DNA from: Eubacteriales bacterium
GTDB taxonomy: Bacteria; Bacillota; Clostridia; Oscillospirales; CAG-272
Assembly: GCA_045631765.1 (NCBI GenBank)
Contig: JAZQVK010000027.1
Coordinates: forward strand, 1 to 32,371
Reading direction: 5' to 3'
DNA: 32,371 nucleotides
A program made the position numbers and the translations under genes. This document shows positions 9,195 to 24,347 of the stretch, one piece after another. Under the pieces are notes generated by a model. The model did not search any database. It saw only the letters and a program-made list of their open reading frames with translations, and was not told where the DNA came from. How positions within the stretch are numbered: the stretch's first letter is position 1; the number at the start of each line of letters is the position of its first letter.

Positions 9195-10664
9195 TCAAGC
9201 CCGCTTGATCTTTAATCTGCCGCTGATCTGATGGTCTACCTTCTGATGGCAGGATAAATATTCATCCAGTACCTCGCGGCATGAGGTCGCCACCCTTCTG
9301 GGCATTCCGTTTTGTGCGATCTCCTCCTGAGAGATCGAGAAGAAATCCTTCATATTTAAGTAGAAGAAATATTGAAGTCCGATCTTATAGACCCTCTCTT
9401 CATCTATCGGCTCGCCATTCAAGGAAAACTCCTCAAAGCGATGGCGCGGTTTGTCATATACCACCCGCACCCCTTTTGAAAACTGAAAAAACTCGCAGTG
9501 AGTACCCTCCCACACCTCATCACGTAGCATAAACAAGATCATTTTCTTAAGCTGAGCACCTGTTGCCCATAACGCAATGGCCGAATCGTCGTAAGGAAGG
9601 CATTCGGTAAGATCGGAAAGCAATATGATGGGACCAATCTCACTCACCCGTATACTGCCTGACCCCACAAGCATGATATCCAGCCGTAAGCTTTCTTGCA
9701 AAGCATCTGCAAGAAAGCCACCCAGCTCGGTTTCCTGATACCATGATGGGTGCGTCAGCTTCCGTTTCAAGCGTGTGATCACGCGGCTGTATTTTTCCTC
9801 CGCGGCTGACTTATACCGATGTAATATCTTTTCAAGGGCGACGTCTCTCGGACAATGCTCGCCGGTGATCGGAATGCTTTTCCAAGCAAAATCGCGGATA
9901 CTGTTGGTATCCGTATCTATTTCAAGATCAAATCTACCTATCTGGTCGGTACCTGTTCCCGCCTGCGCGATCAATATGCCGTTGACCTGCTCGGGCTGTT
10001 CAAGATACGTATGAGAATGGCCGCCAATAATGATATCCACCCCAAGAGAGGGGTCCAGCTGTGCAGCCAGCTGCTTATCCTCCTCAAAGCCGATATGCGT
10101 CAGAAGGATCGTGCAATCTACGTCCGTAGAATGATAAGCATTGCAAATACGCGCGATCTCTGTTGCCGCATCGTGAACGTCTACAAAGCCTCCGACCAAT
10201 GCCTCTTTTTTAGCCTGCGGAAGCACCGCCTCGGTGAGAATACCGATAAACAATATCTTCATCCCATCTATTTCTATAACGTGATGTGGCTTAAACAATC
10301 TGGCGTTGTTGGTGGTAATATGCAGATTAGCGTTGATGATCGGAAATTTTGCACATTTTTCAAGAAATAACAGATGTGCAATGCCGTAATCTATCTCGTG
10401 GTTCCCGATCGTAACCACGTCTGGCGCCAGCATATTCATAATTTCGATCGTGGAAACGCCGCGAAACTCCGAATCAATGACCGATCCGCGAAACATATCG
10501 CCTGCAATGCAGTAAATGGCATTCCTTTCTTCGCCTCGAACCTTATTGACGTATCCTGACAGCATGGACACGCCACCGATCAGCTGCTCATCGACCTCCT
10601 CGGCAAGAAAATCGCCGTGAAGATCGTTGGAGTGCAGGATCGTGAGCTTTTTGATGCTCGCCAT
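9195..10664 (-). CDS. Bifunctional metallophosphatase/5'-nucleotidase family protein, copy A (cytoplasmic)
   Basis: 489-aa ORF with SD GGAGGTG and no signal peptide. Motifs are HSNDLHG, GDMFRG, GNHEIDYG, LTHIG and GGHSH, followed by a C-terminal 5'-nucleotidase-like substrate domain. It is a paralogue of 27087..28583. Confidence 0.85.
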   Translation of the reverse strand: MASIKKLTILHSNDLHGDFLAEEVDEQLIGGVSMLSGYVNKVRGEERNAIYCIAGDMFRGSVIDSEFRGVSTIEIMNMLAPDVVTIGNHEIDYGIAHLLFLEKCAKFPIINANLHITTNNARLFKPHHVIEIDGMKILFIGILTEAVLPQAKKEALVGGFVDVHDAATEIARICNAYHSTDVDCTILLTHIGFEEDKQLAAQLDPSLGVDIIIGGHSHTYLEQPEQVNGILIAQAGTGTDQIGRFDLEIDTDTNSIRDFAWKSIPITGEHCPRDVALEKILHRYKSAAEEKYSRVITRLKRKLTHPSWYQETELGGFLADALQESLRLDIMLVGSGSIRVSEIGPIILLSDLTECLPYDDSAIALWATGAQLKKMILFMLRDEVWEGTHCEFFQFSKGVRVVYDKPRHRFEEFSLNGEPIDEERVYKIGLQYFFYLNMKDFFSISQEEIAQNGMPRRVATSCREVLDEYLSCHQKVDHQISGRLKIKRA

Positions 10665-11309: not shown

Positions 11310-11350
11310 TTCGGGGCAAATTTCATGCCCGCTAACCTAAAAAGCAACGC

Positions 11351-11382
11351 ATAACACCTTGCGCGATCGCGCAAGGTGTTAT
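11351..11382 (-). terminator. Perfect 32-nt palindrome, terminator candidate at the end of the long operon
   Basis: ATAACACCTTGCGCGATCGCGCAAGGTGTTAT lies 12 nt after the stop at 11394. On the minus strand it is followed by GCGTTGCTTTTT. Confidence 0.6.
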
Positions 11383-11393
11383 GCCATTGTTGA

Positions 11394-12296
11394 TTACATA
11401 AACAAATTGTGAATAAAAGATTCTATGATCACGGGAACAAAAAACAATATAGGGCCAGCAAGCTGTACAAAAAATCCGATTCTTGTGAACCCCTTACGGC
11501 GCAGGGCGATAGAAGCGGCGATCGTGAAAGCTGTCATTGCAGGAATACATAAATAAACCTGGTACATAAATTCGCCACCGCCCATAACAAGCTGCATGAG
11601 CCATACCGAGAAAGCGAAAAAAGGAATCCCCACGAGGCCAATCAAAAAGTTGAACACGGTGGAAAGCCTGTCAAGCGATCTATATTCGACGCTTTTATCC
11701 TTTTTTACAAAAACGATGCAGGCAAGAACCGTCAAAGCGCCAATCAACATCATAACAAGCATGCTGCCTACGTGCAAAAGGGAAAACCCTGCAAACTTCA
11801 ATGAATTTTCGATAGGTGTGGGATACTCCCAGCTGATGATCTCCGCATCAAACACATCGGCCACTTCAATGCCTATGCCCTCTGAATCAACAGCCTCAAG
11901 ATATGGATATTCATTCTCTATCTCGTACTCGTAGAAGCCAGCGTCACCCATCAAATAGTCTGCATCTAACGGGATTACCACATATAGCTCAGCGCCAGCC
12001 TTCTGTGCTACCATGAATGCGTGATCTTGTAGATCCACACCATTCTGCATATGCCTTCCGTCATACTCCCTGTCGGTAAAGATATCATAGGCACTGTGGC
12101 CGAGAAAGCTACATCTGAAAACGCCCTCAAAAGTCTTCTCTTCACCGTTAAGCTTATACGCAACCGCGTATTCAAAATCATGCTCCTTAATGACCGGCTC
12201 CTTGAGCATGCAGGTGAGAAAGCAGGATGCTGCTGCAACAATCATACCGATCACGATCAAAATGATCGGCAATTTCACGCTTTTGAGATTCATCAT
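11394..12296 (-). CDS. Membrane protein, unknown function
   Basis: 300-aa ORF with SD GAGG 6 nt upstream. It has an N-terminal TM helix, an acidic extracytoplasmic domain of ~140 aa, and 4-5 C-terminal TM helices. It lies 18 nt downstream of the STAS-kinase gene. Confidence 0.7.
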   Translation of the reverse strand: MMNLKSVKLPIILIVIGMIVAAASCFLTCMLKEPVIKEHDFEYAVAYKLNGEEKTFEGVFRCSFLGHSAYDIFTDREYDGRHMQNGVDLQDHAFMVAQKAGAELYVVIPLDADYLMGDAGFYEYEIENEYPYLEAVDSEGIGIEVADVFDAEIISWEYPTPIENSLKFAGFSLLHVGSMLVMMLIGALTVLACIVFVKKDKSVEYRSLDRLSTVFNFLIGLVGIPFFAFSVWLMQLVMGGGEFMYQVYLCIPAMTAFTIAASIALRRKGFTRIGFFVQLAGPILFFVPVIIESFIHNLFM

Positions 12297-12314
12297 TTCC
12301 GACCTCTTTGTGGA

Positions 12315-13487
12315 TTAAAAGCACAAGCTATCTGTTTTTTCAAGAAGGATCGCCAGCATTTCCTTGCATCGTGCGATCTTTACAGGGCTTTCCGCCTCGT
12401 TGGGGCGGCGAATAGCGCGGCGAAGCATACGGGTATAACCAACGATCATTGCCTTTTCGGCAACGCTTTGGCATGCGGCTTCATCATCCGTACCAAGATA
12501 CAGCTGAAGAGCCATCTTCCAGAATCTTCCTGCGGTTTCAAAGCTATAGCCGAAGAAGTGCATCATATTCTGGTGGTCATGCTCGGAATATCCGACAAAC
12601 GCATTGAACATGGACCCCAGCTCAAACACGGGGTGCCCCATGCACAGCGTATCCATATCAATAAGCAAGGGCTCCCCATTCTGCACCATAATATTATTGG
12701 TATGATAATCACCGTGCATCAAGGTGTTCTGCTTCGGCACCGCCTCTATGAGAGCGCGCAGCTTCTTTCCCTGCTCCTCGGGAATGTGAGGGGCTACGAA
12801 ATCTGCCCAGTCAAGAGCGATCTCCTTCATATCGGGAACCTCGCCATCCTCTACGTGGATGGCGTGAATGCTCTTAAGCATATCAATATAATATTTTGCA
12901 GCCGCTGTCAAATCGTTAGGATCGTTGCGGATCAGCTTCGTTACGCTGACGGCATTCAAAAGCTCTGTTACGGTACCGTAGCCCTCTCCCACACGAACGA
13001 TGCCGTAAGGAATTGCGGTATTGATGCCGAGAACGAAGGCTTTTCTCGCATTCTCTCGCTCTTGCTTGATCTCAGGAAGGGCATCCTTTGCAAAATAGGT
13101 TTTCAATATGGTTTCATCATCGTAACGGTAAACGGCACCGTTTGCACCCTTTGCAATGAACTCACACCCCTCCACGCTCATTCTCTGATAAGCCTTTTCA
13201 ACCGTAACCATATCGGTAAAGCCGGTCATATCAAAAACCTCGTACACATCGGAGGCCGCGTTGATGATTGCAAGCTTGGGCTCTTCCTTTCTAAGTCTTA
13301 AGATCACGCGCAAGCCCGCGGAAGATATGTACTCGAGCTGATCGGCATCCACAACGGTATGCTTTCCCGGGTTATCATTTTTAATACTGAAAATTTTCTC
13401 CTCTGCCTCTGCCGCATTGGAAGCATCAATTCTTCCCTCTATGGCGATATACAGAATATCCTTGTCTATACGATAGGTAACGTTCAT
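12315..13487 (-). CDS. STAS domain fused to an aminoglycoside/choline-kinase-type (APH, protein-kinase-like) phosphotransferase domain
   Basis: The N-terminal ~100 aa are STAS (GRIDASNA..., LEYISSAGLRVIL, VYEVFDMTGFTD). The kinase-like part has GANGAVYRY (P-loop-like), ILKTY (Lys), HGDYHTNNIM (Brenner HxDxxxxN) and LIDMD (metal-binding Asp). I prefer the ATG at 13487 (SD AAGGA) over the TTG at 13493. That start is 2 nt after the stop of the upstream HD gene. Confidence 0.8.
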   Translation of the reverse strand: MNVTYRIDKDILYIAIEGRIDASNAAEAEEKIFSIKNDNPGKHTVVDADQLEYISSAGLRVILRLRKEEPKLAIINAASDVYEVFDMTGFTDMVTVEKAYQRMSVEGCEFIAKGANGAVYRYDDETILKTYFAKDALPEIKQERENARKAFVLGINTAIPYGIVRVGEGYGTVTELLNAVSVTKLIRNDPNDLTAAAKYYIDMLKSIHAIHVEDGEVPDMKEIALDWADFVAPHIPEEQGKKLRALIEAVPKQNTLMHGDYHTNNIMVQNGEPLLIDMDTLCMGHPVFELGSMFNAFVGYSEHDHQNMMHFFGYSFETAGRFWKMALQLYLGTDDEAACQSVAEKAMIVGYTRMLRRAIRRPNEAESPVKIARCKEMLAILLEKTDSLCF

Positions 13488-13489
13488 TT

Positions 13490-14173
13490 TCAATTTTCCT
13501 TTCCGAATACAAGCTCTGTAAGCGTGTTGTATTCAAGCCAGGCCGAGGTGCCCGACAGCCGCTCGGTCAATTTAACGATCGAGCGGTAGTACCAGGCTTG
13601 CTCGGTAACATCCTTTTGGTTAAATCTTTGCCACAGCTGTACGCCCTCTACCTTGAAATCACGATAGATGGCGCGCATATTAGCCAGCTTATCGCCCAGC
13701 CATACCATCAAGACGGCCATATCGTCTGTGTTTTTTAACACATTGAGGGATTCTTCCTTGCGGATACGCCACGTAGCAGACGGCGGAAGCTCTGCACGTT
13801 TATCCTCGGTTTCGGACTCAACCAGCTCCCGTACACGCTTTCCAAATCTCTCTTCAATTTCTTCGATGGTAATACCCGCATCCTCTACAACGTCATGAAG
13901 GGCGGCCGCAGCGATCAGGCTCTGATCCGCAGACATCGTTCCAACGATGACTGCCGCTTCCATGGGATGAAGAATATACGGAGACTCACTTTTTTTGCGC
14001 CTCATACCATCGTGAGCCTTAACGGCAAACGCTATTGCTTCACTAACAAGCTCCATAGAATATAACCGCAAGCGGTTCGACGTTGCGCCTCCCGATATAC
14101 GGTCTTCCTCCGTTCCTTTCAATAAAAATCTGTGATCAATCAAGCAGCAGGCCGTTTTTGCATGCTCATGCAA
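13490..14173 (-). CDS. HD-domain protein of the RelA/SpoT (p)ppGpp-hydrolase type (small alarmone hydrolase-like)
   Basis: 'AIAFAVKAHDGMRRKKSESPYILHPMEAAVIV' and 'AAALHDVVEDAGITIEEIEERFGKRVRELVESETEDK' match the RelA/SpoT HD hydrolase pattern. No synthetase domain is present. The start is uncertain: ATG at 14173, or ATG at 14056 giving MELVSEAIAF... Confidence 0.75.
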   Translation of the reverse strand: MHEHAKTACCLIDHRFLLKGTEEDRISGGATSNRLRLYSMELVSEAIAFAVKAHDGMRRKKSESPYILHPMEAAVIVGTMSADQSLIAAAALHDVVEDAGITIEEIEERFGKRVRELVESETEDKRAELPPSATWRIRKEESLNVLKNTDDMAVLMVWLGDKLANMRAIYRDFKVEGVQLWQRFNQKDVTEQAWYYRSIVKLTERLSGTSAWLEYNTLTELVFGKEN

Positions 14174-14186
14174 AAACAGGGTTCCC

Positions 14187-14657
14187 TTATTTTGCTTCGT
14201 TGAGTACGTCGCGACGAACGGCCTGAGCAGCCTTTACAAAAAAGACGTAAACAACTGCGCCCAAAGTGGCATTTGCAAAATTGAGGATAGCATCAATGAT
14301 AGGTGCACTGCCGTCAAACAGCGTGATGGCGGCAGATATAGCGGAAATAACACTCATAACAAAGAACACCTTTGCAGCGGTGATGTAGCCTTTGTCGGTA
14401 TTGGGGTTTTTGCTGACCTTCAAAGCCTTGATGCCAATAAGCACATCTGCAAATACGATAAGCCCCAGAAGCCCGCCGATAACGCCCAGCATCACCTTTA
14501 CCGCAACCAGGATCTGCGGCTCTACGCTGGCAAGCGTTTCGGCTACAGTGCCATCAACAAGACTGGCAACAACGGTAGAAATGAACATAAACAAGTTAAG
14601 AACGCCGAGAACAATTAAAACCAAGCCGTAATCGTGAAGAACCTTTCTGTTTTGCAT
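14187..14657 (-). CDS. Small 4-TM membrane protein (paralogue of 25553..25996)
   Basis: I chose the start at 14657 (MQNRKV...) because AAAGGAGA lies 8 nt upstream. The conserved loop 'GIKALKVSKNPNTDKGYI' resembles 'GVRGLRIAKNPTPSKGHI' in the paralogue. Confidence 0.7.
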   Translation of the reverse strand: MQNRKVLHDYGLVLIVLGVLNLFMFISTVVASLVDGTVAETLASVEPQILVAVKVMLGVIGGLLGLIVFADVLIGIKALKVSKNPNTDKGYITAAKVFFVMSVISAISAAITLFDGSAPIIDAILNFANATLGAVVYVFFVKAAQAVRRDVLNEAK

Positions 14658-14685
14658 GATTTTTTCTCCTTTTAATAAAAAATTT

Positions 14686-14976
14686 TTATTCAATGGTCAA
14701 AATATCGGCAAAGCCGGTCATTTCAAAGACTTCCATAACAAGCTCACAAACGTGAATAAGCTTCATCGCACCCTCTGTTTTCTTTTGAGCGGCAAGCAAA
14801 ACACGAAGTCCTGCGGATGAGATATAGGTCAGCTTTTCGCAATCAATAACGATCGAGCCGGTTCCGTCATATTGCTCATCAAGAAATTTCTCAAGCTCGG
14901 GGGCGGTGGTGGTATCCAAACGGCCGTCTAAGGCTACGGTCAAGATGCCGTTATTTTTTGTAAAATCAATTTTCAT
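14686..14976 (-). CDS. STAS-domain anti-sigma-factor-antagonist-like protein (SpoIIAA/RsbV family), copy 2
   Basis: 96 aa: GRLDTTTAPELEKFL, LTYISSAGLRVLLAAQKK (phosphorylatable Ser context), VMEVFEMTGFADIL. SD AAGGAG lies 7 nt upstream. Confidence 0.9.
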   Translation of the reverse strand: MKIDFTKNNGILTVALDGRLDTTTAPELEKFLDEQYDGTGSIVIDCEKLTYISSAGLRVLLAAQKKTEGAMKLIHVCELVMEVFEMTGFADILTIE

Positions 14977-14987
14977 TTCTTATCTCC

Positions 14988-15587
14988 TTATGCAAACCTT
15001 TTCATCATAACGATTTCTGCGCAATTCCCCTTTACGCCAACGATTACGTCGTCAGCAACCGAGGCGATCACAGATTTCTCAAGCTCATCCCACGCCTCTG
15101 CCTGCTCTTCCTTTTTCACAGAGCTTCTGTATTCCTCCAATCTCCAAAGGTAAGCATAGTCTACGCCGTCGCAATATCCGTTCGCAAACCCAAACGATCC
15201 CGACGACAGGGCCAACGCTGCCATTTTCGTCTCGTCCAAGAAGAAGGTTTCAATGGCATCACGGATCTTGCCGACAATGCCAACCGCTTTGGCATTTTTC
15301 TTGTTCTTGGCAATACCGATCAGCTCCTCCTTCTTGTCAGCATTGAACTCGGGAATTTGAATAGAAACGTTTACCTTGCATACCCCCTCCTCGAACTCGA
15401 TCCAAAGCTTGCCTTCAAAATCGTCGATGATGTTGGGAAGCATTCCGTCGATCTCCTCGCAAAGCAAGCGTAATTGAAGCGCCTGCTTGTGACTAAGACC
15501 GTTATATTCCGCCACTCGTTCGCTTTCTCTCAGAATGGCATCCAGATCTCTTGTTCCTTTTTCGATGGTGCATACGTTTGATTTCAT
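14988..15587 (-). CDS. Hypothetical 199-aa cytoplasmic protein between the two STAS genes (possible degenerate GHKL/RsbW-like fold)
   Basis: Strong SD AAAGGAGAAAAGAT-ATG. I recognise no family. 'QLRLLCEEIDGMLPNII' and 'GKLWIEFEEGVCKVNVSI' resemble the RsbW N-box and following strand, but I see no G1 or G2 ATP-binding boxes. Confidence 0.65.
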   Translation of the reverse strand: MKSNVCTIEKGTRDLDAILRESERVAEYNGLSHKQALQLRLLCEEIDGMLPNIIDDFEGKLWIEFEEGVCKVNVSIQIPEFNADKKEELIGIAKNKKNAKAVGIVGKIRDAIETFFLDETKMAALALSSGSFGFANGYCDGVDYAYLWRLEEYRSSVKKEEQAEAWDELEKSVIASVADDVIVGVKGNCAEIVMMKRFA

Positions 15588-15599
15588 ATCTTTTCTCCT

Positions 15600-15908
15600 T
15601 TAATTCTTTTTCATTTCAATTGCCAAAATGTCAGCAAAGCCGGTCATCTCGAATACCTCCATAACCTCTTCGCAAACGTTGCTCACCTTCATAGAACCGA
15701 GCTTCTGCATCTTCTTCTGTGCGCCGAGAAGAACGCGAAGACCTGCGCTGGAGATATATTCCAGGCGGTTCAAATCAAGAACGAGGTTTTTCGTGCCCGC
15801 AATGTCATTGCTTATGGTTTTGTCAAGGGCGGGTGCCGTGGTGGTATCAAGTCTTCCTACAAGCTCGATAATGGTTTCTTCTGCGTTTCTCTTAATTTCG
15901 ATCGTCAT
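15600..15908 (-). CDS. STAS-domain anti-sigma-factor-antagonist-like protein, copy 1
   Basis: 102 aa: GRLDTTTAPALDKTI, LEYISSAGLRVLLGAQKK, VMEVFEMTGFADIL. It is very similar to copy 2. Confidence 0.9.
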   Translation of the reverse strand: MTIEIKRNAEETIIELVGRLDTTTAPALDKTISNDIAGTKNLVLDLNRLEYISSAGLRVLLGAQKKMQKLGSMKVSNVCEEVMEVFEMTGFADILAIEMKKN

Positions 15909-15929
15909 ACCTATAAATCTCCTTGCCGT

Positions 15930-18749
15930 TTAAATTTTTTTAATCATAGTCAGAACGTTTTCGCCGTTTTCATAGGCGTAGGTTACCGTATCCATCGTTT
16001 TCTTCGTAATGAAGATGCCAAGCCCGCCGATCTCACGATCCTCGGCTGACAGCGTGATGTCCGGATCAGGCTTTTGAAGTGGGTCAAACGGTGTGCCCTT
16101 ATCCCGCATTCGGAAGGTGATCTCGCGGCTTTCCGCATCAAATCCGATGCCGAGCGTCATATCTCCCTCACCGTCTCCGTAAGCGTAGTGAGCAACATTG
16201 ACGAATACTTCTTCAATGGCTACACAAATAGCCGTTTGAATTTTCATGGGGCATTCGTAGCCCTCCAGCGTTTGATCTACAAATCCAAGAACGTCGGATA
16301 ATACGTCTATCTTGGCAGGAAACGTCTTATTCGTCACGTGCACGCCTCCTTGCTTAGGTTTATAATCGAACATCAGCATCGTAATATCGTCAAACTGCGG
16401 TGCCTCGCCCACAAATTCATCAATATTGGCTTTTAAGGCCGGTAAAAAGTCGGTTGCCTCCGCCGAAGCGTTTTTGTTCATAAAGGCTAAGAGTCTATCC
16501 TCGCCGTAAAGCTTGTTTTCCGTATTCGTTGCCTCGGGCACGCCGTCGGTATACAAGAACAACCTGTCTCCGGGGTACATCATAAGCTCACCTACGCGGT
16601 AACGTACACCCTCCATGCCTGCAAGAACAAAGCCTGCGCGCGTTTTGAGATATTCAAAATCGCCATTCGCCCTCTTTAACAGGGGCGGATTGTGGCCGGC
16701 ATTGGCGAACTGCATGCTTCCTGTTGTCAAATCCAAAATGCCCATCCAAGCGGTAACGAACATGCCCGATTCATTGTTTTCACAAAGCTTTTCGTTTGCT
16801 TTTGTGAAAATATCGTTTACCGCCATACCGCTTTCCGCAAGGTCCTTGATAATGGTCTTGGCGGTCATCATAAACATCGCTGCCGGAATTCCCTTGCCCG
16901 ACACGTCAGCAGCAAGAAAGGCTACCGTGGTGTCGCTAAGCTTATAGAAATCGTAGAAATCTCCCCCGACCTCTTTTGCAGCGATCATCTGCGCGTATAT
17001 TTTATAATCCTCGTTTTCCGGGAAGTTGGTGGGTAGTGCCGAAAGCTGGATCTGCTTCGCGTATTCCAGCTCCTTGTCGATACGCGCCGCCGCTTCCGCG
17101 ATATAGCGCTTCAGAGTAGAGACTGTAGAGTTAATATCATCCGATAAGGACGCAAACTCCTGGCTTGACCGCACGTCCACCGTCACGTTCAGATCTCCCT
17201 TTGTGATCCGCCCGAGCGTATCGTTGATCTTCTGCAAATTATTGATAATAACACGCTTAATGAGTATGTAAACAAATACGAACAGGGTGGCAAAAATAAT
17301 AACCTGCATAAAGATGCTCGTATAAAGAGAGGCGTCACGCATAAACGTAGCCTCCGCCTCGGGCATTGCAGCAATAATGCAATATCCCTCGACAAACTTA
17401 AATACGTACATATATTTTGCATCGTTAATATCAGCATCATAAAGTGCTGTAGCGGTTTTGCCCTCTTTCATCTCATCAGGCACTTTAATTCCGATTTTGG
17501 ACAGCGGGGCTCCCGCATATCCGTCTCTATCGGTAACAATGGTAAGCGTTTCGTCGCAGATCGCTACAAATCCGTTTGTTCCAACGTGACGGTTTTTCGT
17601 AAAGTCGATCACGTATTCATCCAAAATATTATGGAACTGCTCTGCATCGCAGCCAACCTGAATAAATCCGCCCTCCGTAAGATTGACGGCAGCATATTTT
17701 CTCCACACCGAGCCGTCCTTCCCTCTCGGGCTGTACTTCTGCACGAAAGAATCCTGCTCCCGCAAGGTATCAACGAACTCTTTAGACTGCTCCTTGCTTT
17801 TCATATCGTAATGGATACTGTCATCTTCCGTGGAGTCCAGGATAATTCCCTCCCGGCTGACAACGTTGATCTCAACGATTCCGTATTTTTCTACGATATC
17901 AAACAGTGATGCATTCGGATCGTTTTCATATTCAACCTTGACGGCCTCGGCAATGCCAAGAAGGTGGGCATTGGATTTTCCGTTAATGTCTGCCTCCACG
18001 TCGTTTATCGCAGCCGTAAACACTTCCTTTGTTTCAATCTTTACCATCCCGTTTTGGAGAATGTAGGTAAAGGCGCTGGTAACAAGATACGCGATCACGA
18101 TGCAAGCCAAAAGCCAACGCTGAAAGGTACTGGAAATCCCTTCACTATCCTTCTTTAATCGAAAACGCTCATGGCTTAGCAGAGAAACGATAATGATCGC
18201 ACAACCAACAGCCACCGCATTGCCGATCACCATCGGAATAGTGGCCCCCTTGACAAACTCAAAGGCCTGGGAGGAATTATCCATATTGGTAATAAAGATC
18301 AATATCATATGGATAACTTCACAGGCAACCGCGATGCAAACGCCGTAACCCCAGGTAGGCTTTTTATTGTCAAACATCAGCTTTCTGAGCCCTGCCGCCA
18401 TCAAGCCGGAAAGAATCGTTGCGATACTACAGGCAAGCTGCGTGTAAGTGCCGGCGCCCCAATATACCGAAAACCAACGGTAAAGGCCACCGAGGCATCC
18501 CGAAATAATACCTGCGGGAGCACCAAATATAAGACCTGCTGACAGCGGTGCGGCATCACGAACGTTGACAACGGCACCGAGCCACTCTACACCGTAGCTT
18601 GATGCAAAAGCCGATACGCCGCCAAAAAGAACGCCGACCAGGATCTGCTTTGTCATATACGGTAATTTTTTTGCGGGCGTGTATTTATCTGCCAAGTAAA
18701 CACAAAGCACAAGAAAGCAGTTAATCAATATGGGAATCGTTAATCTCAT
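15930..18749 (-). CDS. Membrane sensor: 5TMR-LYT-like domain, extracytoplasmic domain, HAMP, PP2C/SpoIIE phosphatase and RsbW-like HATPase (Ser kinase) domain
   Basis: 939 aa; all boundaries below are approximate.
- aa 1-195: multi-TM region with 'VNVRDAAPLSAGLIFGAPAGIISGCLGGLYRW' (LytS-type 5TM receptor pattern; nt 18165-18749).
- aa 233-474: between TM helices (nt 17328-18053).
- aa 498-550: HAMP-like.
- aa 565-797: PP2C motifs VGGDFYDF, LAADVSGKGIPAA, LYTDGVPEA, FDDITML (nt 16359-17057).
- aa 808-939: HATPase_c_2-like motifs EEVFVNVAHYAY, RDKGTPFDP, GGLGIFITKK (nt 15933-16328). Confidence 0.9.
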   Translation of the reverse strand: MRLTIPILINCFLVLCVYLADKYTPAKKLPYMTKQILVGVLFGGVSAFASSYGVEWLGAVVNVRDAAPLSAGLIFGAPAGIISGCLGGLYRWFSVYWGAGTYTQLACSIATILSGLMAAGLRKLMFDNKKPTWGYGVCIAVACEVIHMILIFITNMDNSSQAFEFVKGATIPMVIGNAVAVGCAIIIVSLLSHERFRLKKDSEGISSTFQRWLLACIVIAYLVTSAFTYILQNGMVKIETKEVFTAAINDVEADINGKSNAHLLGIAEAVKVEYENDPNASLFDIVEKYGIVEINVVSREGIILDSTEDDSIHYDMKSKEQSKEFVDTLREQDSFVQKYSPRGKDGSVWRKYAAVNLTEGGFIQVGCDAEQFHNILDEYVIDFTKNRHVGTNGFVAICDETLTIVTDRDGYAGAPLSKIGIKVPDEMKEGKTATALYDADINDAKYMYVFKFVEGYCIIAAMPEAEATFMRDASLYTSIFMQVIIFATLFVFVYILIKRVIINNLQKINDTLGRITKGDLNVTVDVRSSQEFASLSDDINSTVSTLKRYIAEAAARIDKELEYAKQIQLSALPTNFPENEDYKIYAQMIAAKEVGGDFYDFYKLSDTTVAFLAADVSGKGIPAAMFMMTAKTIIKDLAESGMAVNDIFTKANEKLCENNESGMFVTAWMGILDLTTGSMQFANAGHNPPLLKRANGDFEYLKTRAGFVLAGMEGVRYRVGELMMYPGDRLFLYTDGVPEATNTENKLYGEDRLLAFMNKNASAEATDFLPALKANIDEFVGEAPQFDDITMLMFDYKPKQGGVHVTNKTFPAKIDVLSDVLGFVDQTLEGYECPMKIQTAICVAIEEVFVNVAHYAYGDGEGDMTLGIGFDAESREITFRMRDKGTPFDPLQKPDPDITLSAEDREIGGLGIFITKKTMDTVTYAYENGENVLTMIKKI

Positions 18750-18761
18750 CTCAATACCTCT

Positions 18762-19721
18762 TTACGCAAGAAAATCTATCAAAAGCATCACATAATCAGC
18801 AAGGATATTTCCAACAATACCAATCGCCATCAGCAGCACCATGTATAAAAACATGCTTCCGCGGCTAACAGAATCCTTCGTAATGTTATAATAAAAATTA
18901 AACTGTCCCTGCAAATTATCCTCCCGGCTCTGATTCCATTGATACGTGATTACGTCCTCACGTTTATATTCCTCGGGAAGATAGCCTTCATACAAATTTT
19001 CTTCCAATCGGTGAATACGATAACAGCCGGAATCGTTCAGATCGTAATTTTCATCAATCGAAAGCGTAATGACCGCCTTTTTTAATTTCTGACGGTGAAA
19101 CGCCCCGATCCTGGTAATTTCTTCGGGCAAAAGCCTCGATTCATTTACCCGTATGGAATATCCGTATTTTTCTGAAACCACCGGGGTTGTGATCAAATCG
19201 CGCAGTCTTGCAAGCGCATTTCCCATGTTGACACGAGGCTTAAATATTTCATTTAGGGATTTATGCGGCATGCGCCAGATAAAATACGCCTCATCATTAT
19301 CCAAAAACGGCTGCAACGCAGTTAAATCAATGCCGATCAGCGTACCGTCAGCCAAGTGCTCTGCCTGACAATCCAACGTGCTTATATGCACGATATCCAC
19401 AGTCTTTCCGTTATATGCGATCTCGGAGGTGTGCTCGTTCTTCATATAGTCCACGATGCAAGCTGCGCTAAAGGTTGCCTGCAAAATTTTTGTATCGTTA
19501 AAGCGCAGCGATACGTCCTCTATTTCATGCTGAGGCACGGCAAACGGAACGTATACGTGTAAGGCCTTGCTGGCCTTTATGCCGCGTATGCGCACTGCTA
19601 TATCTACGTAGCTCTTTCCCTTGGGGTTTAGCCAATCGTTGATGTATACCGTGCTGGTATCATCTCCGTCGATCCATACCGCCCAACCGTCATCGGCGAA
19701 TTTTCTTTGTTTTTTAGGCAT
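18762..19721 (-). CDS. Hypothetical 319-aa protein with a single C-terminal TM helix (tail-anchored), no recognised family
   Basis: SD AGGGA upstream. It lies 12 nt upstream of the sensor gene and 19 nt downstream of guanine deaminase. The C-terminus 'SMFLYMVLLMAIGIVGNILADYVMLLIDFL' is hydrophobic. Confidence 0.7.
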   Translation of the reverse strand: MPKKQRKFADDGWAVWIDGDDTSTVYINDWLNPKGKSYVDIAVRIRGIKASKALHVYVPFAVPQHEIEDVSLRFNDTKILQATFSAACIVDYMKNEHTSEIAYNGKTVDIVHISTLDCQAEHLADGTLIGIDLTALQPFLDNDEAYFIWRMPHKSLNEIFKPRVNMGNALARLRDLITTPVVSEKYGYSIRVNESRLLPEEITRIGAFHRQKLKKAVITLSIDENYDLNDSGCYRIHRLEENLYEGYLPEEYKREDVITYQWNQSREDNLQGQFNFYYNITKDSVSRGSMFLYMVLLMAIGIVGNILADYVMLLIDFLA

Positions 19722-19740: not shown

Positions 19741-21036
19741 CTATAGAATATGTCTTCCCGCTACAAGCTTAGCGGCAATATTTTTCTCATCTAATCCCAA
19801 ATAAACAGCGCGCTCCATTCGTTCTGCAAGATTGAGGCGCTGGGGATGGGGGAGCACGCTGTCATCCAAGACAACTGCATCAAATTCATACCCCTCTTCA
19901 AAGCTTCCCACCTTGCCAAAGAATGCTCCACCGCCCTTTGTTGCAAGATAAAAGGCTTCCGAAAATACAAGAGGCTTATAGGCTTCATCTACCATTCTGA
20001 AATACAGCTTGGATACCTGGATCGCATCGGTGATAGCCCGGAATATAGACGCACTATGTCCACCTGCAACGTCACTGCCAAGCCCGATATTTAGCCCGAG
20101 ATCCAGATATTTACGAATCGGAGCAATACCCGAGGTAAGGTTCATATTGGAAGCAGGGCAATGCGCTACAAACACGCCGTTTTTGCGCATCAGCGCCACC
20201 TCCTCATCGGTTGACCAAACACAATGCGCCATCACGGTTTTTACGTCGGTATTTATATCGTCGTTTTTGCCGAACAGGTCGTATTCGTTATAGGACTCCC
20301 CATAAAAAGCATTGTCGGGGCGAAGGATTTTCACAAAATCGATCTCCCCCTTGCTTTCCGAAAGGTGCGATTGTACGGGGATGCCGTAGGCCATCTGAAT
20401 TTCCCTGAGCTCTTCCATCAGCTTATCTGTACAGCAAGGAATAAATCTCGGAGTCAGGATCGGTTTTGTATTCTTGAATTTGTCCTTTACCGCGTTGATC
20501 CAGCCAAACGTGGTGTATGCGGAAATATCGGCGCTGTCCTCGGTAAGCGCCTCGCTTGCTTCTCTGTCCATATTGACCTTACCAACGTAGCTGATAAGTC
20601 CGCTTTCCTCCATAAGCTTCATGAAAAGCTCGGTAGCATAGCGATGGCGAGTTGCAAAAATGCAAGCCCTTGTGGTAGCCCCCGTTTTCAAGGCATCTAC
20701 GAAGATGCCGTATGCTCTTTCGGCATACTCGAGGTTCTCGTATTTTTCTTCCTCGGGGAAGGTATAGCGGCTCAGCCAATCCATCAGCTCAAGATCCATA
20801 CACATTCCACGAAACGCATACTGCGGTGCGTGTACGTGAAGATCGACCATGCCCGGAAATACCAACAAATCCCCATAGTCATAAAGCGGAAGGCGCGCAT
20901 ATTCTGCAGGCAAGGTATGAAATATGCCTCGCGACACACCATCTACACAAACGGCAAAAGCCCCCTCGTGCAGATCAAGCTCTTGCGGATCCTTCGTTTG
21001 GCAGATATTGCCCTTGATTACAAAGCTATTATTCAT
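19741..21036 (-). CDS. guaD: Guanine deaminase (amidohydrolase superfamily)
   Basis: 431 aa. 'FPGMVDLHVHAPQYAFRGMCMDLELMDWLSRYTFPEEEKYENLEYAERAYGIFVDALKTGATT' closely parallels the E. coli GuaD N-terminal region as I recall it (PGFIDTHIHYPQ...LLEWL..HTFP.E..Y.DLEYA). SD GAGGAGG upstream. Confidence 0.8.
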   Translation of the reverse strand: MNNSFVIKGNICQTKDPQELDLHEGAFAVCVDGVSRGIFHTLPAEYARLPLYDYGDLLVFPGMVDLHVHAPQYAFRGMCMDLELMDWLSRYTFPEEEKYENLEYAERAYGIFVDALKTGATTRACIFATRHRYATELFMKLMEESGLISYVGKVNMDREASEALTEDSADISAYTTFGWINAVKDKFKNTKPILTPRFIPCCTDKLMEELREIQMAYGIPVQSHLSESKGEIDFVKILRPDNAFYGESYNEYDLFGKNDDINTDVKTVMAHCVWSTDEEVALMRKNGVFVAHCPASNMNLTSGIAPIRKYLDLGLNIGLGSDVAGGHSASIFRAITDAIQVSKLYFRMVDEAYKPLVFSEAFYLATKGGGAFFGKVGSFEEGYEFDAVVLDDSVLPHPQRLNLAERMERAVYLGLDEKNIAAKLVAGRHIL

Positions 21037-21083: not shown

Positions 21084-21308
21084 TTAACGAATTCCGTCGA
21101 AATATTGGCTACAGGCCATTAAATATTCCGTCCAATCAAATTTCGTTTCAATATCGTACTTATCTAAGATCGTATTGAGATCCGCAACTCTTTGGAAGAG
21201 CTCCTTGATCTGCGCTTTTTCCTCCTCCGTGTATTGTTCGTAGTTGTCTAATAGATCTTCCACTACTGTCTTGAACTTTTTCATTAACTCTTTCTTTTCG
21301 CTTTTCAT
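21084..21308 (-). CDS. Small helical hypothetical protein (74 aa)
   Basis: Strong SD GGAGGTAAGCAA-ATG. The protein is charged and helical (KKELMKKFKTVVEDLLDNYEQYTEEEKAQIKELF). I recognise no family. Confidence 0.55.
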   Translation of the reverse strand: MKSEKKELMKKFKTVVEDLLDNYEQYTEEEKAQIKELFQRVADLNTILDKYDIETKFDWTEYLMACSQYFDGIR

Positions 21309-22088: not shown

Positions 22089-22619
22089 TCACCGATCTGT
22101 CGGTATTTCCGCCTCGCAAAGGAAGGTCATCAGCGCGTCTGCGGTCTCCTTCACGTTAGAGACGAAGCACAATTTATAGCTTCCGTATCCGGGTACGTCC
22201 AAAATCAAATCTCCGTATTTCTCCGAGAACAAATGGATCATGAGCACCGCTATAAGCTCTTTTGAATAGATAAAGGGAAGATGATACGTTACCATCGCGC
22301 CCTCAAAGGCAGAAAGCGGTATCTTGGCTTGCTTGTTGCCGTAAACGTAGACGTATTCACCGTCTGTCTCTGCCAGCACCTCGGGCGATTTACGGTAAAT
22401 ACGATAGGGGCGTATGAAAAGAAAGTATGCAAACGAGCCAAACATCAGCATACCTATCACCACAACACCAAGAACGTAAGGATTCAGGAGCAAGGATGCA
22501 TCTCCCAACAGAACGGCAATGGGAAGTCCGAGCATCGCCGCCGCCATGACGATCGCGCCGATCACCAGCTGCACCCTTAAAATACCGAACGAACTCATTT
22601 TTTTGACTAATATTTTCAT
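22089..22619 (-). CDS. Membrane protein, unknown function (2 TM plus a soluble C-terminal domain)
   Basis: 176-aa ORF with SD GGAG. Two N-terminal hydrophobic helices are followed by a ~100-aa domain. Confidence 0.6.
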   Translation of the reverse strand: MKILVKKMSSFGILRVQLVIGAIVMAAAMLGLPIAVLLGDASLLLNPYVLGVVVIGMLMFGSFAYFLFIRPYRIYRKSPEVLAETDGEYVYVYGNKQAKIPLSAFEGAMVTYHLPFIYSKELIAVLMIHLFSEKYGDLILDVPGYGSYKLCFVSNVKETADALMTFLCEAEIPTDR

Positions 22620-22735
22620 AAAACCACTCCGTGATCTATTTTATAAAATAACGTTTCAAGCTTTTTCGACCTAATCAGCTTACGTATCAGCAAAACTGCA
22701 GAGGCCTTGACCGCGCTTGCATAACACTATCGGTT

Positions 22736-23218
22736 TTATTTTCGATTCATCCTCAAAATTGAAGTGATGGTTTCGATCCCCGCCGGGCATACACTCTGAC
22801 AAGACAGCGCCTTGTCGGTTGAAACGGCGGCGTGCGCCAAAGCGATTGCGAAGAAGAGCGGGGGAACGATCGTGTGAACGATTTGCGGCGGCTGCATGGC
22901 ACCGGATGCGCCCGCAATATGCAAGGCGGTAAATGCGATCAACAAAATTCCGCTTACACGCTGAAAGATCGTAGCACCGTTCATGCTGGGATAGCTTTTT
23001 ACCTTCCGCCTTTCACCTTCCATGTGAGAGGAGATCACAAGATCTATACTGATGAACGCGTGTAGCGCCACCAAGCCCGCCAATATCCAAGGTACCATAG
23101 GCGCGCTCTGCGCAACGCTTCCCCTTGAAAGCATCCAAACAGAAGTAAACATGGCGTGATCCAGCAGTAAAAGGGTAGTCAACAGACTGATTATTGCGTT
23201 GATCTTACGCATGAGCAT
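22736..23218 (-). CDS. Membrane protein, unknown function
   Basis: 160-aa ORF with SD AAAGGAGA 7 nt upstream. It has 4 hydrophobic segments with conserved-looking His residues. Confidence 0.6.
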   Translation of the reverse strand: MLMRKINAIISLLTTLLLLDHAMFTSVWMLSRGSVAQSAPMVPWILAGLVALHAFISIDLVISSHMEGERRKVKSYPSMNGATIFQRVSGILLIAFTALHIAGASGAMQPPQIVHTIVPPLFFAIALAHAAVSTDKALSCQSVCPAGIETITSILRMNRK

Positions 23219-23260
23219 ACGCTTTCTCCTTTTGGTACTCTTTTCGCTATCATTGCCGCG

Positions 23261-23605
23261 TTAACGATTTGCTTTCTTGCTTACAATGAGCTTATGCACG
23301 AACAAAAGCACGAGAAGCCCAACGAACAATGCCGCACCTGCCCGGTGAGCGATATTGAGCGCAGCAACGTCCTTAACCTTCATGACGATGGGGCCTGTGA
23401 TCAAAGCAATGCCGTAGCAGGCTCTCATAACGATCTCAAGCACGGGGATCCGCCACTCCTTTTTGGTTGCGGCGGTATATACGGCCAAAACGAAAATTCC
23501 GGCTACGGCAATGGCAATGTGTGCCGCCACGCCCGTTGCTTTGAACAAAAACAGTAAAATACCTACTACCAGCATGATGGGGGCAAAAATGAAGTCCTTT
23601 TTCAT
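23261..23605 (-). CDS. Small 4-TM membrane protein, unknown function
   Basis: 114-aa ORF with SD AAGGAA upstream; strongly hydrophobic. Confidence 0.6.
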   Translation of the reverse strand: MKKDFIFAPIMLVVGILLFLFKATGVAAHIAIAVAGIFVLAVYTAATKKEWRIPVLEIVMRACYGIALITGPIVMKVKDVAALNIAHRAGAALFVGLLVLLFVHKLIVSKKANR

Positions 23606-23634
23606 GGTGCATTCCTTCGATTTATGTAAAATAA

Positions 23635-24327
23635 TTATTGATCTTGGTTGTTTTTCGTTTTCTTCTTTCCCAACCTATCAAGCCCAAAGAAGGCAAATCC
23701 AACCGCAGCAAATACCACGCCAAGAATGCCGATCCACATAAGAACGCCCGTGGTACCTTGCGTATCAAGATTTACAAAGAAATACGGATAGATGAGAGGC
23801 GTGCTTGTGGTGGGGATCAGAATGGAGGTAACAAACTTCAAAATGATCGCCTGGATAAGAAGGAATATTGCGTATACAAGCGGAAACGCGATCGAAGCGA
23901 GGGGATAATACCACTTCATTTTCTTGCGCTCGTAAAACAAGAACCAGTCGGCTATGTAGAGAATGGGAAGCACGACGTGGAAGCACAGGCTGCCAACACG
24001 CCAGTTTGCCTGGGGATCGCGCCCTTCTGCGCCGGCAAGCATAATGTTGAATACAAGGAAGGTCAAAAGAATGCCAAGCATGCCGATAAATTTCAGCATT
24101 GGCGCGGCAGAAACGTAGCTATCCTCCTTCTTTTTTGCCGTCTGGATCAAAGCGGCAAGCATAACGCCGATGCAAAGGTAATTGCTGATGTTGGTGAAAT
24201 GCACGTAAAAATCCCAACGAATCGTTTGAATGTTATCAAAGATTCCCAGGCTTGCAATCATACCAACAAGGCCGAGCGTGCAATAGATGGTCTGATAAAT
24301 TAATTGTGCGGTTCTGTTTTTGATCAT
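23635..24327 (-). CDS. Pr6Pr-family-like polytopic membrane protein
   Basis: I set the start at 24327 (MIKNRTAQ...) because TAAGGAGA lies 7 nt upstream. 'DFYVHFTNISNYL' resembles the FT.xSN signature I associate with the Pr6Pr family. It has 6 TM segments. Confidence 0.6.
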   Translation of the reverse strand: MIKNRTAQLIYQTIYCTLGLVGMIASLGIFDNIQTIRWDFYVHFTNISNYLCIGVMLAALIQTAKKKEDSYVSAAPMLKFIGMLGILLTFLVFNIMLAGAEGRDPQANWRVGSLCFHVVLPILYIADWFLFYERKKMKWYYPLASIAFPLVYAIFLLIQAIILKFVTSILIPTTSTPLIYPYFFVNLDTQGTTGVLMWIGILGVVFAAVGFAFFGLDRLGKKKTKNNQDQ

Positions 24328-24347
24328 GATCATTCTCCTTAAGGCTT

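Follow-up and report, generated by a model that had tools for sequence, protein, structure and literature searches.

The window analysed here is a stretch of 32,371 nucleotides from an Eubacteriales bacterium (contig JAZQVK010000027.1), and its minus strand carries nine tightly packed open reading frames (ORFs) between positions 11394 and 19721. These genes encode a membrane sensor with both a phosphatase and a kinase domain, three STAS domains, several enzymes and a 199-residue protein, hereafter p199, whose predicted fold resembles that of anti-sigma factors. The assembly as a whole is a signalling operon of the partner-switching kind that is real and widely conserved in gut bacteria, with the same gene order recurring in at least 19 other assemblies of gut and rumen Clostridia. 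In the order of transcription, and including the gene immediately upstream and the terminator, the features are:

19741 to 21036, minus strand: guaD, guanine deaminase (NCBIfam and Pfam), 19 nucleotides 5' of orf319
18762 to 19721, minus strand: orf319, a cytoplasmic domain of about 285 residues and a C-terminal transmembrane helix at residues 285-303 (tail-anchored)
15930 to 18749, minus strand: membrane sensor, 939 residues, with 5TM-5TMR_LYT, HAMP, SpoIIE/PP2C and HATPase_c_2 domains (Pfam)
15600 to 15908, minus strand: STAS protein 1, 102 residues, predicted acceptor Ser54 (codon 15747-15749)
14988 to 15587, minus strand: p199, 199 residues, no Pfam or NCBIfam family, SpoIIAB/RsbW/UsfX-like fold predicted by AlphaFold2 and Foldseek
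14686 to 14976, minus strand: STAS protein 2, 96 residues, predicted acceptor Ser54 (codon 14815-14817)
14187 to 14657, minus strand: small polytopic membrane protein, 156 residues, four to five hydrophobic segments, accessory and variable
13490 to 14173, minus strand: small alarmone hydrolase-type protein (Pfam HD_4, 1.1e-21)
12315 to 13487, minus strand: STAS-APH fusion, 390 residues, N-terminal STAS domain with predicted acceptor Ser56 (codon 13320-13322)
11394 to 12296, minus strand: membrane protein of 300 residues, last gene before the terminator, one N-terminal and four C-terminal transmembrane helices
11349 to 11384, minus strand: intrinsic terminator (stem of 16 bp, 9 of them G-C; loop of 4 nucleotides), followed by GTTGCTTTTT

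Organization of the operon

The nine genes from orf319 to the 300-residue membrane protein were all recovered at the coordinates first given and are separated by -4 to 28 nucleotides, counted with the start codons as first called. Shine-Dalgarno sequences of the AGGAG/GGAG type lie 5' of guaD, orf319, the sensor, both small STAS genes and p199, and also 5' of the 156-residue membrane gene (read from ATG 14657) and of the 300-residue membrane gene. The original prediction, made from the sequence alone, described nine consecutive minus-strand genes with short gaps and ribosome-binding sites of their own, and the ORFs, gaps and Shine-Dalgarno sites are confirmed; what changes is the position of certain gene starts, as three start codons are revised or questioned by comparison with homologues. 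The STAS-APH gene most likely begins at ATG 13487, giving the 390 residues found in homologues, and the small membrane protein most likely at ATG 14657, giving 156 residues. For the HD gene, a start at 14056 may apply, which would yield 188 residues as in homologues instead of the 227 residues read from TTG 14173; such a start would leave a gap of 130 nucleotides with no clear Shine-Dalgarno sequence.

The sole strong terminator, at 11349-11384 with its T run on the minus strand, closes the unit. A single convincing terminator had been placed at 11351-11382, and a strong 16-bp stem with no other strong candidate beside it agrees with that placement. Promoter-like matches are uninformative, because they are no more numerous (19) than in shuffled sequence (18.3). 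At the other end, guaD is probably co-transcribed with orf319 and the remaining genes and is a variable member of the cluster. Its inclusion in the unit, raised in the original prediction on account of the 19-nucleotide gap, is therefore probable, but the 5' boundary is not fixed, since a further ORF of 74 residues (21084-21308, minus strand) precedes guaD. This ORF has a GGAGG ribosome-binding site and lies between a GNAT gene and guaD; a gene of equal length occupies the matching position in a related locus (L001). It is conserved, and no convincing family was found for it. A riboswitch 5' of guaD was also considered. No Rfam match was obtained there even at permissive thresholds, and the apparent long leader is filled by the 74-residue ORF.

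The sensor and the STAS domains are components of the switch. Within the sensor the following regions are distinguished:

Residues 29-188: 5TMR-LYT membrane module
Residues 228-478 (approximately): extracytoplasmic region of about 250 residues with transmembrane helices on either side
Residues 497-547: HAMP domain
Residues 606-796 (16362-16934, minus strand): PP2C/SpoIIE phosphatase domain
Residues 810-937 (15939-16322, minus strand): RsbW-type serine kinase domain, HATPase_c_2

About seven or eight transmembrane segments are predicted, and besides HAMP the Pfam matches are to 5TM-5TMR_LYT (2.5e-24), SpoIIE/PP2C (3.3e-48) and HATPase_c_2 (2e-21). The PP2C domain (164.6 bits against a cut-off of 25) keeps all of its metal-binding motifs, GGDFYD, DVSGKG, YTDG and FDDIT. 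The kinase domain (76.7 bits against a Pfam cut-off of 27.4) has intact N-box (EEVFVN), G1 box (DKGT) and G2 box (GGLG), and its E/N, DxG and GGLG residues are invariant across 12 sensor homologues. That a single 939-residue membrane protein unites PP2C phosphatase with RsbW-type kinase, as originally read, is upheld by both the domain matches and the intact catalytic motifs. Among solved structures the closest relative of the sensor is Rv1364c (3ke6), with SiaA (6k4e) and RssB also among the best, and the match to the NCBIfam SiaA model (3.4e-19) falls far below that model's cut-off. One LytS-type 5TMR-LYT receptor, BtsS, binds pyruvate (PMC10653868).

STAS domains are matched by Pfam in STAS protein 1 (3.1e-17), in STAS protein 2 (1.1e-15) and in the N-terminal part of the STAS-APH fusion (1.8e-11). 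The window STAS proteins match NCBIfam ant_ant_sig above its cut-off (2.7e-21 for STAS protein 1). Common to all three domains is the motif L[ET]YISSAGLRV[LI]L, the second serine of which aligns with the phospho-serine of SpoIIAA (Ser58) and RsbV; two single-domain proteins and one fusion with the same acceptor context are what had been described. Since the PP2C and RsbW-type kinase domains are intact and the acceptor serine is present in all three STAS domains, the assignment as a partner-switching cluster stands.

The remaining genes include three enzymes. The C-terminal part of the STAS-APH protein is a predicted phosphotransferase of the APH/choline-kinase fold (Pfam APH 7.2e-21; 75.5 bits against a cut-off of 23.2), in which the catalytic loop HGDYHTNN (residue 258) and the IDMD motif (residue 276) are intact; the match to NCBIfam TIGR02172 (2e-33, 116 bits) lies below the paralogue cut-off of 228. 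The HD_4 protein (77.6 bits against a cut-off of 27.2) is a clear homologue of small alarmone hydrolases (SAH), with predicted activity. It keeps the HD, ED and DKLAN (DxxxN) motifs, and among solved structures it is closest to a small alarmone hydrolase (7qoe, 2.3e-26), with the hydrolase domains of Rel/SpoT proteins and MESH1 next in line. The guaD product matches NCBIfam guan_deamin at 1.3e-91 (307.5 bits, below the curated cut-off of 375.4) and Pfam Amidohydro_1 at 7e-45.

The other products are orphans, and the profile searches placed none of them in a well-characterized family with an unrelated role. The tail-anchored orf319 has no Pfam, NCBIfam or PADLOC family, and its homologues number 5832, the best 120 of which are at least 85% identical. 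Across 13 loci it is 58-91% identical and always lies just upstream of the sensor, and more than 100 positions are invariant across 37 sequences. Its AlphaFold2 model has a predicted local distance difference test (pLDDT) score of 62 and was built from homologues that are too alike (65-90% identity); it is of moderate quality, with acceptable confidence in the beta-rich N-terminal domain (about residues 12-160). The fold search with this model gave no credible match. A relationship to pentameric ligand-gated channels was rejected, as TM-scores do not exceed 0.23 and the likeness is a generic one of beta-sandwich and helix. Neither membrane protein has a family in Pfam, NCBIfam or PADLOC. Among close relatives, the 156-residue gene holds its position only in L003, L009 and L013. 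The 300-residue protein, which has a loop of about 150 residues after its first transmembrane helix, has homologues at this position only in L007 and L008 and is likewise a variable accessory.

Predicted fold and lost motifs of p199

No family was found for p199 in Pfam or NCBIfam (both at E-values up to 0.1), in PADLOC or in the sequences of the PDB, whether the single sequence or an 81-sequence profile was used. Its own family is large: clustering at 90% identity gives 2059 clusters and at 50% identity leaves 874 representatives, 516 of which have E-values up to 1e-10. Relatives occur in Clostridia, Treponema and Fibrobacter, and a scan with one genome per species placed them in at least 585 genomes. 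A structure was predicted with AlphaFold2 from an 81-sequence alignment with a mean column identity of 38%, giving a pLDDT of 83 and a predicted template modelling (pTM) score of 0.78. When this model was compared with the PDB by Foldseek, all 14 of the best matches were UsfX, SpoIIAB or RsbW (E-values from 1.1e-3, probability 0.99-1.0, target-normalized TM-score 0.54-0.73). The best of these is UsfX-RsfB (8ih8), and the list includes the SpoIIAB-SpoIIAA and RsbW-RsbV complexes; the ATP domains of histidine kinases rank after the anti-sigma kinases, at much lower probability.

The residues that would bind ATP in such a fold are gone. When the p199 family is aligned by hhalign with 12 kinase sequences, the match, though not significant, is in register, and two invariant glutamates of p199, E44-E45, pair with the EE of the kinase N-box. 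In each of the 81 aligned members of the family the Mg-binding N-box asparagine has given way to Met, Leu or Ile (Met49 in p199), there is no G1 box (no DxGxG), and the G2 box GGLG is replaced by a nearly invariant WDEL. In proteins of this fold these boxes are required for kinase activity, though anti-sigma activity can do without them. Because the canonical ATP-binding motifs are lost on an anti-sigma-like fold, p199 is probably a degenerate RsbW-like domain and a predicted pseudokinase. A conserved SGKN-x4-G-x2-GK-x-R segment, placed where the ATP lid used to be, may now serve to bind a nucleotide messenger or an enzyme partner.

Some members of the family are tandem duplications of about 400 residues with two p199 units and no other Pfam domain (P0247, P0248, P0254, P0256, P0263, P0285, P0297 and P0349). 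They suggest that the functional unit of p199 is a dimer, a proposal made because such proteins fit the dimeric state of SpoIIAB and RsbW. Rosetta-stone fusions of p199 with STAS or other domains were also sought, and the longer members proved to be either tandem proteins or proteins with unannotated extensions.

These results sharpen the earlier view of the protein. It had been put forward as a possible pseudo-GHKL protein, and the AlphaFold2 model, the Foldseek matches and the loss of the N, G1 and G2 boxes support this. It had also been counted as one output among several; given its linkage to STAS genes, described below, it is better seen as an anti-sigma-like switching partner. Likewise, the statement that the operon encodes no anti-sigma factor holds as far as sequence families go, but has to be qualified in view of the predicted fold of p199.

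Genomic context and the proposed output of the switch

In the 19 closest loci, which come from uncultured Eubacteriales and Clostridia of gut and rumen and in which p199 is 58-81% identical, a core of sensor, STAS, p199, STAS and STAS-APH is constant. The STAS protein 2 gene is kept downstream of p199 throughout this close clade, and the STAS-APH gene is present in all of its type-A loci as well as in distant Clostridia. One contig from the human gut reads guaD, orf319, sensor, STAS, p199, STAS, HD_4, STAS-APH, membrane protein and 5'-nucleotidase. The operon is not an isolated case, and the synteny whose absence would have spoken against the original idea recurs in at least 19 assemblies. Around the core, the presence of guaD, HD_4 and each membrane gene varies, as does that of orf319 in two loci. 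The HD_4 gene is found in eight close-clade loci and is absent from seven, and a guaD homologue lies upstream of orf319 or of the sensor in the operons of L001, L003, L005, L008, L010 and L019 and is absent from L004, L007 and L016. Since each is missing from some operons of the close clade, neither HD_4 nor guaD is an obligatory output. Among the candidate outputs first listed, the APH fusion is conserved, whereas the HD protein and the two membrane proteins are not fixed parts, and neither, in two loci, is orf319.

In a sister variant (L017, L018, L020 and L021), p199 is followed by a 352-residue RelA_SpoT synthetase, a 176-residue HD_4 hydrolase and a STAS gene. Here a core of STAS, p199, small alarmone synthetase (SAS), SAH and STAS replaces the "STAS, STAS-APH" arrangement.

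The window also contains two paralogous 5'-nucleotidase genes (Metallophos and 5_nucleotid_C; 9195-10664 and 27087-28583), and the counterpart of the first directly follows the operon in L001 and L007; the two genes fit a guanine-nucleotide theme. In L008 the fixed order is broken by a gene for a 1115-residue FG-GAP/fn3 protein (L008:4584-7928) between the first STAS gene and p199, which may be an insertion or a misassembly.

The wider company of p199 was counted in 80 genome loci, many of them on short contigs. A STAS gene is the direct same-strand neighbour of p199 in 40 of the 80 and lies within 5 kb in 53; a STAS gene adjoining p199 is the commonest arrangement, and most often it is upstream, as in the window. 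Within 5 kb a PP2C gene is found in 40 loci and an RsbW-type kinase, fused or separate, in 38, in Clostridia and Treponema. Enzymes of nucleotide signalling recur beside these switch genes. A RelA_SpoT synthetase adjoins p199 in eight loci (L017, L018, L020, L021, L023, L029, L069 and L077) that span at least five lineages, namely the close clade, a metagenome-assembled genome (MAG) of Clostridiales, Traorella, Treponema sp. JC4 and a MAG of Oscillospiraceae. An HD_4 gene is no more than 5 kb away in 14 loci, and a PAS-HD_5 gene in 10, eight of which are Fibrobacter loci where the PAS-HD_5 protein follows p199. By our own rough estimate SAS or SAH genes number one or two per genome, and chance would place one within 5 kb in fewer than 1% of loci. 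In three Treponema loci p199 is followed by PnrA-like nucleoside-binding proteins, and in a Lachnospiraceae MAG (L073), the only such case, by two GAF-GGDEF genes; by Pfam, the window has no GGDEF gene of its own.

The gene order is synthetase, hydrolase, p199 in L023 and HD_4-APH, p199, synthetase in L069, and profile searches of 16.6 kb each found no STAS, PP2C or kinase gene in either. The absence of switch genes from these two loci is the reason for arguing that p199 itself works with alarmone enzymes. Two fusions tie together the three enzyme genes of the window: an HD_4-APH protein that directly adjoins p199 in Treponema sp. JC4 (L069:6503-7975), and an HD_4-Amidohydro_1 (guanine deaminase) protein in an uncultured Traorella (L029:3972-5822), encoded in a p199 operon with a PP2C-kinase and a STAS gene. 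The C-terminal part of the latter is close to the guaD product of the window (phmmer 9e-185).

It could be argued that only the sensor, the two STAS proteins and p199 form a unit, and that guaD, HD_4, APH, orf319 and the membrane genes are passengers. Genes do come and go in close relatives, as shown by HD_4, guaD, the membrane genes and (in two loci) orf319, and the large FG-GAP/fn3 gene of L008 may interrupt the core itself. Passengers would hardly explain why an APH domain shares a polypeptide with a STAS domain that bears the common acceptor motif, nor the HD_4-APH and HD_4-guanine deaminase fusions and the SAS-SAH pairs beside p199 in unrelated lineages. The intergenic gaps of 11-28 nucleotides, the one strong terminator and the conservation of orf319, which equals that of p199 and is accompanied by a kept position, speak for a single unit as well, and such a loose neighbourhood is regarded as improbable.

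A sigma factor is the expected output of a classical partner switch, and its gene would be expected nearby, as the sigma gene is adjacent to the anti-sigma gene in rsbV-rsbW-sigB, spoIIAA-AB-sigF and usfX-sigF. Every ORF of 82 loci and of the window was compared by phmmer with the E. coli sigma factors FliA, RpoS and RpoE. Within about 8 kb of p199 no sigma-70-family gene was found in the 82 loci apart from one extracytoplasmic function (ECF) sigma factor, 5 kb away in L039, and the 32-kb window has no sigma-70-family ORF by phmmer or Pfam scans. A conserved sigma/anti-sigma pair just outside the operon, which had been named as grounds for abandoning the idea, was thus looked for and, the L039 ECF gene aside, no linked sigma factor was seen. 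The original claim that no sigma factor is encoded now covers the window and the neighbourhoods of 82 loci, that ECF gene excepted, and it is a statement about neighbourhoods. In a Pfam scan of 106 unlabelled neighbours of p199, no sigma family was among the families found in at least two neighbours; those that recurred were HD_5/HD with PAS, RelA_SpoT, ABC transporters, Bmp/PnrA and others. In L024, L042, L047 and L061, paired genes for proteins of about 725 residues precede STAS and p199; judging by their size, these pairs may account for the pooled ABC_tran/ABC_membrane matches and would then form a further recurrent setting.

A canonical switch with its sigma factor encoded elsewhere must still be weighed. 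Here p199 would be a kinase-dead anti-sigma factor that sequesters a group-3 sigma factor, and the enzymes would be members of the regulon or bystanders. The best structural matches of p199 are indeed anti-sigma factors, headed by the kinase-inactive UsfX; the best solved relative of the sensor, Rv1364c, belongs to the SigF network; and mycobacterial kinase-dead RsbW homologues can be true anti-sigma factors (PMC7693655). A sigma factor encoded at a distance would also suit the 12 of 80 p199 loci that have no informative neighbour. It does not suit the pattern of classical systems, where the sigma gene adjoins that of the anti-sigma factor, when no such gene is linked to p199 in the window or, bar one ECF gene, in 82 loci from several phyla. 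Nor would an anti-sigma factor be expected to adjoin alarmone, HD_5 and GGDEF enzymes repeatedly, sometimes with no STAS gene. A remote sigma factor is accordingly thought unlikely.

The reading preferred here, to which a probability of roughly 0.5 is given, is that the cluster is a partner switch in which the classical jobs of RsbW/SpoIIAB are divided, and that its output is a set of alarmone and guanine-nucleotide enzymes rather than a sigma factor. We infer who phosphorylates whom, the binding of p199 to STAS proteins and the role of the enzymes as regulated targets, as follows. The sensor, through its kinase and PP2C domains, would set the phosphorylation state of the conserved serine in the three STAS domains. 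The switching partner would be p199, as a catalytically dead, anti-sigma-like GHKL paralogue that is probably dimeric. Unphosphorylated STAS protein would bind p199, as SpoIIAA binds SpoIIAB, and free p199 would bind and control an enzyme client. For the APH kinase, the attached STAS domain could act in cis as its regulator or could serve to bring it to p199. In the window the targets would be the HD_4 alarmone hydrolase, the APH-fold kinase and the probably co-transcribed guanine deaminase, with a RelA/SpoT-type small alarmone synthetase in this role in the sister operons. The net output would be turnover of the alarmones guanosine tetra- and pentaphosphate, (p)ppGpp, together with the guanine-nucleotide pool, by way of the hydrolase, the guanine deaminase and the nearby 5'-nucleotidases. 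The outputs had been expected to be enzymatic or orphan; that they are probably not sigma factors is retained, while the context in distant genomes indicates a particular class, alarmone and guanine-nucleotide enzymes, that was not proposed earlier.

A different division of labour is conceivable, in which p199 is a pseudokinase that heterodimerizes with the kinase domain of the sensor and tunes its kinase/phosphatase balance, leaving the STAS proteins as direct effectors of the enzymes. Proteins of the SpoIIAB/RsbW type are dimeric, RsbW3 binds RsbW1 (PMC7693655), and p199 shares its predicted fold with the sensor kinase domain. The direct fusion of STAS to an APH kinase means that a STAS domain can act on an enzyme with no intermediary, and STAS proteins that directly regulate diguanylate cyclases are known from SiaC-SiaD and HsbA-HsbD (PMC8457831, PMC5085249). 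A modulator of the sensor would not be expected, however, where there is no kinase or STAS gene within 8 kb, as it does beside SAS/SAH or PAS-HD_5 genes (L023, L069 and the Fibrobacter loci), and the tandem p199 proteins hint that p199 pairs with itself and not with a kinase. Sensor modulation is therefore judged quite unlikely, somewhat more so than a remote sigma factor, and p199 is taken, in preference, as the switching partner of the STAS proteins.

Several observations weigh against this preferred assignment of partner and output. A nucleotide-messenger enzyme lies within 5 kb of p199 in only 26 of the 80 loci, and 12 of the 80 show no recognizable partner. HD_4 is missing from seven close-clade operons and guaD from several, and the close-clade loci are not phylogenetically independent of one another. 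Structurally, the sensor core is closest to Rv1364c and p199 to UsfX, both of which act in the SigF pathway. The E-values of the p199 fold search are marginal (1e-3 to 1e-1), and the query-normalized TM-score is about 0.4 because p199 carries some 60 inserted residues, a helical and disordered stretch at about residues 83-145. By sequence, the p199 family does not match HATPase_c_2 profiles significantly (hhalign E-value 0.022, probability 2%, against the 12-sequence kinase alignment); hhalign gave no match to the sensor's kinase domain alone, and a hidden Markov model of the local kinase domains does not recover p199.

A broader proposal is put forward more tentatively, as a possibility with less than even odds: p199 would represent a new and widespread family of dead GHKL proteins that couples STAS switching directly to nucleotide second-messenger enzymes, so that a sensor runs the (p)ppGpp and guanine pools. 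If so, gut anaerobes would have a post-translational input to the stringent response that is independent of sigma factors and ribosomes, and an anti-sigma fold would be seen to have lost catalysis and gained a non-sigma client. Should the output be right, it would form a direct protein-level link from a membrane sensor to (p)ppGpp and GTP homeostasis, which matters as SAS and SAH enzymes have few known upstream signals. Partner switching is a main post-translational logic module, and mechanistic knowledge of it comes almost entirely from sigma control. The p199 family is abundant in Clostridia of gut and rumen, Treponema and Fibrobacter yet is without annotation. Hundreds of hypothetical proteins gain a concrete starting hypothesis from these results, and Treponema sp. 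JC4 and [Clostridium] aminophilum are carriers that can be grown in culture.

Elsewhere in the window, a restriction-modification pair occupies an island of low G+C content (5360-7403; 0.38-0.43 compared with about 0.47). It comprises a C5 cytosine methyltransferase with an N-terminal HTH_26 domain (6174-7403) and an Eco47II-type endonuclease split between overlapping ORFs, 5866-6183 covering profile positions 1-95 and 5360-5908 covering 91-201; as it is divided in this way, the endonuclease gene is either frameshifted or affected by an assembly error. With SAS-SAH pairs and this island nearby in mind, a role in anti-phage defence was considered and rejected, since no meaningful PADLOC matches were obtained and the flanks carry conserved housekeeping-type genes. 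Two ORFs of about 570 residues overlap on opposite strands at 3320-5059, of which the plus-strand one (3350-5059), with Beta_helix and GLAA-B domains, is the real gene; its minus-strand counterpart has no family. On the minus strand, 22089-27012 holds ORFs of 176, 160, 114, 246, 310, 160 and 326 residues with no Pfam match, several of which look membrane-bound. A two-component system (28726-31376, minus strand) consists of a LytS/YehU-type sensor of 626 residues (His_kinase and HATPase_c) and a 257-residue response regulator whose output domain is not recognized by Pfam.

Relation to known partner switches

In the literature searched, there was no description of the p199 family, of a STAS-APH fusion or of a link between STAS proteins and SAS/SAH enzymes. 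Absence there is no proof, but it agrees with the original prediction, in which the combination was not recognized as a described system. New non-sigma STAS modules are still being reported, e.g., HenR in Anabaena (PMC13555669).

Among the features of RsbU/V/W-type systems, the PP2C phosphatase, the RsbW-type kinase and the phosphorylatable STAS proteins are present and the linked sigma factor is not. The B. subtilis systems RsbU/V/W-SigB and SpoIIE/AA/AB-SigF likewise combine a PP2C enzyme, a phospho-Ser STAS protein and a partner of the SpoIIAB/RsbW fold, and their gene order, STAS followed by RsbW-like (rsbV-rsbW, spoIIAA-spoIIAB), is mirrored in the window. The third gene encodes a sigma factor in B. 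subtilis, whereas in the window and the sister operons it encodes a second STAS protein or an alarmone synthetase. Furthermore, the B. subtilis anti-sigma factor is itself the kinase, while here kinase and phosphatase share one polypeptide and the RsbW-like protein encoded on its own has lost the ATP motifs.

A separation of this kind is familiar from mycobacteria. In M. smegmatis, RsbW1 binds SigF and has no kinase activity, RsbW2 phosphorylates RsfB, and RsbW3 does neither and binds RsbW1 (PMC7693655); the contrast between RsbW2 and RsbW1 provides a precedent for the split into kinase-active and kinase-dead proteins. The mycobacterial SigF network resembles the window in that kinase-active and kinase-dead RsbW homologues share the work, several STAS antagonists are present, and one protein, Rv1364c, unites sensor, PP2C phosphatase and GHKL kinase (PMC7693655). 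It differs in controlling SigF, whose gene is adjacent to usfX, whereas the window has no linked sigma gene. Unlike UsfX, p199 is not recognizable as HATPase_c_2 by sequence and has the insertion of about 60 residues, and unlike Rv1364c the window sensor is an integral membrane protein of the 5TMR-LYT/HAMP type, with one STAS domain of the window fused to APH.

HsbR fuses a PP2C phosphatase and an RsbW-type kinase that act on one STAS protein, HsbA. The output of the P. aeruginosa HptB-HsbR-HsbA pathway includes the diguanylate cyclase HsbD (PMC5085249, PMC6482189), so that the HptB-HsbR-HsbA-HsbD/FlgM system shares with the window a fused phosphatase-kinase and, on the reading preferred here, an output through a nucleotide second-messenger enzyme. 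In contrast to the window, its input is a receiver domain with a phosphorelay, it has one STAS protein and no pseudokinase partner, and its outputs are the cyclic di-GMP and FlgM/RpoS pathways. The SiaABCD system of P. aeruginosa also has a membrane HAMP-PP2C phosphatase, SiaA, and a GHKL-like kinase, SiaB. SiaC is phosphorylated on threonine and is only STAS-like. It directly activates SiaD, a nucleotide-messenger enzyme (PMC7647112, PMC8457831). However, kinase and phosphatase are separate in SiaABCD, the output is a diguanylate cyclase, and the system has no dead-kinase paralogue and no APH or HD_4 enzyme.

Non-sigma outputs are shared by SypE/SypA of Vibrio fischeri, BtrU/V/W of Bordetella and HenR-STAS of Anabaena (PMC10120452, PMC8256260, PMC13555669), and SypE also fuses kinase and phosphatase domains. 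Their outputs differ, being polysaccharide synthesis, type III secretion and a glycosyltransferase, and they all lack alarmone enzymes, a pseudokinase of the p199 type and a set of three STAS domains. On the enzyme side, the HD_4 homologue and the synthetase-hydrolase pairs of the sister operons recall the SAH and SAS proteins (Tde-SAH and Tde-SAS of Treponema denticola, RelH, MESH1), and short RSH enzymes are the sole alarmone enzymes of some spirochaetes (PMC10434055). In contrast to what is proposed here, the literature searched describes control of SAS and SAH enzymes through allostery, TPR domains, transcription or toxin-antitoxin pairing. The closest precedents are therefore spread over several systems: Rv1364c, HsbR and SypE for the fused phosphatase-kinase, UsfX and RsbW1 for the kinase-dead partner, and SiaABCD and HsbA-HsbD for a second-messenger output.

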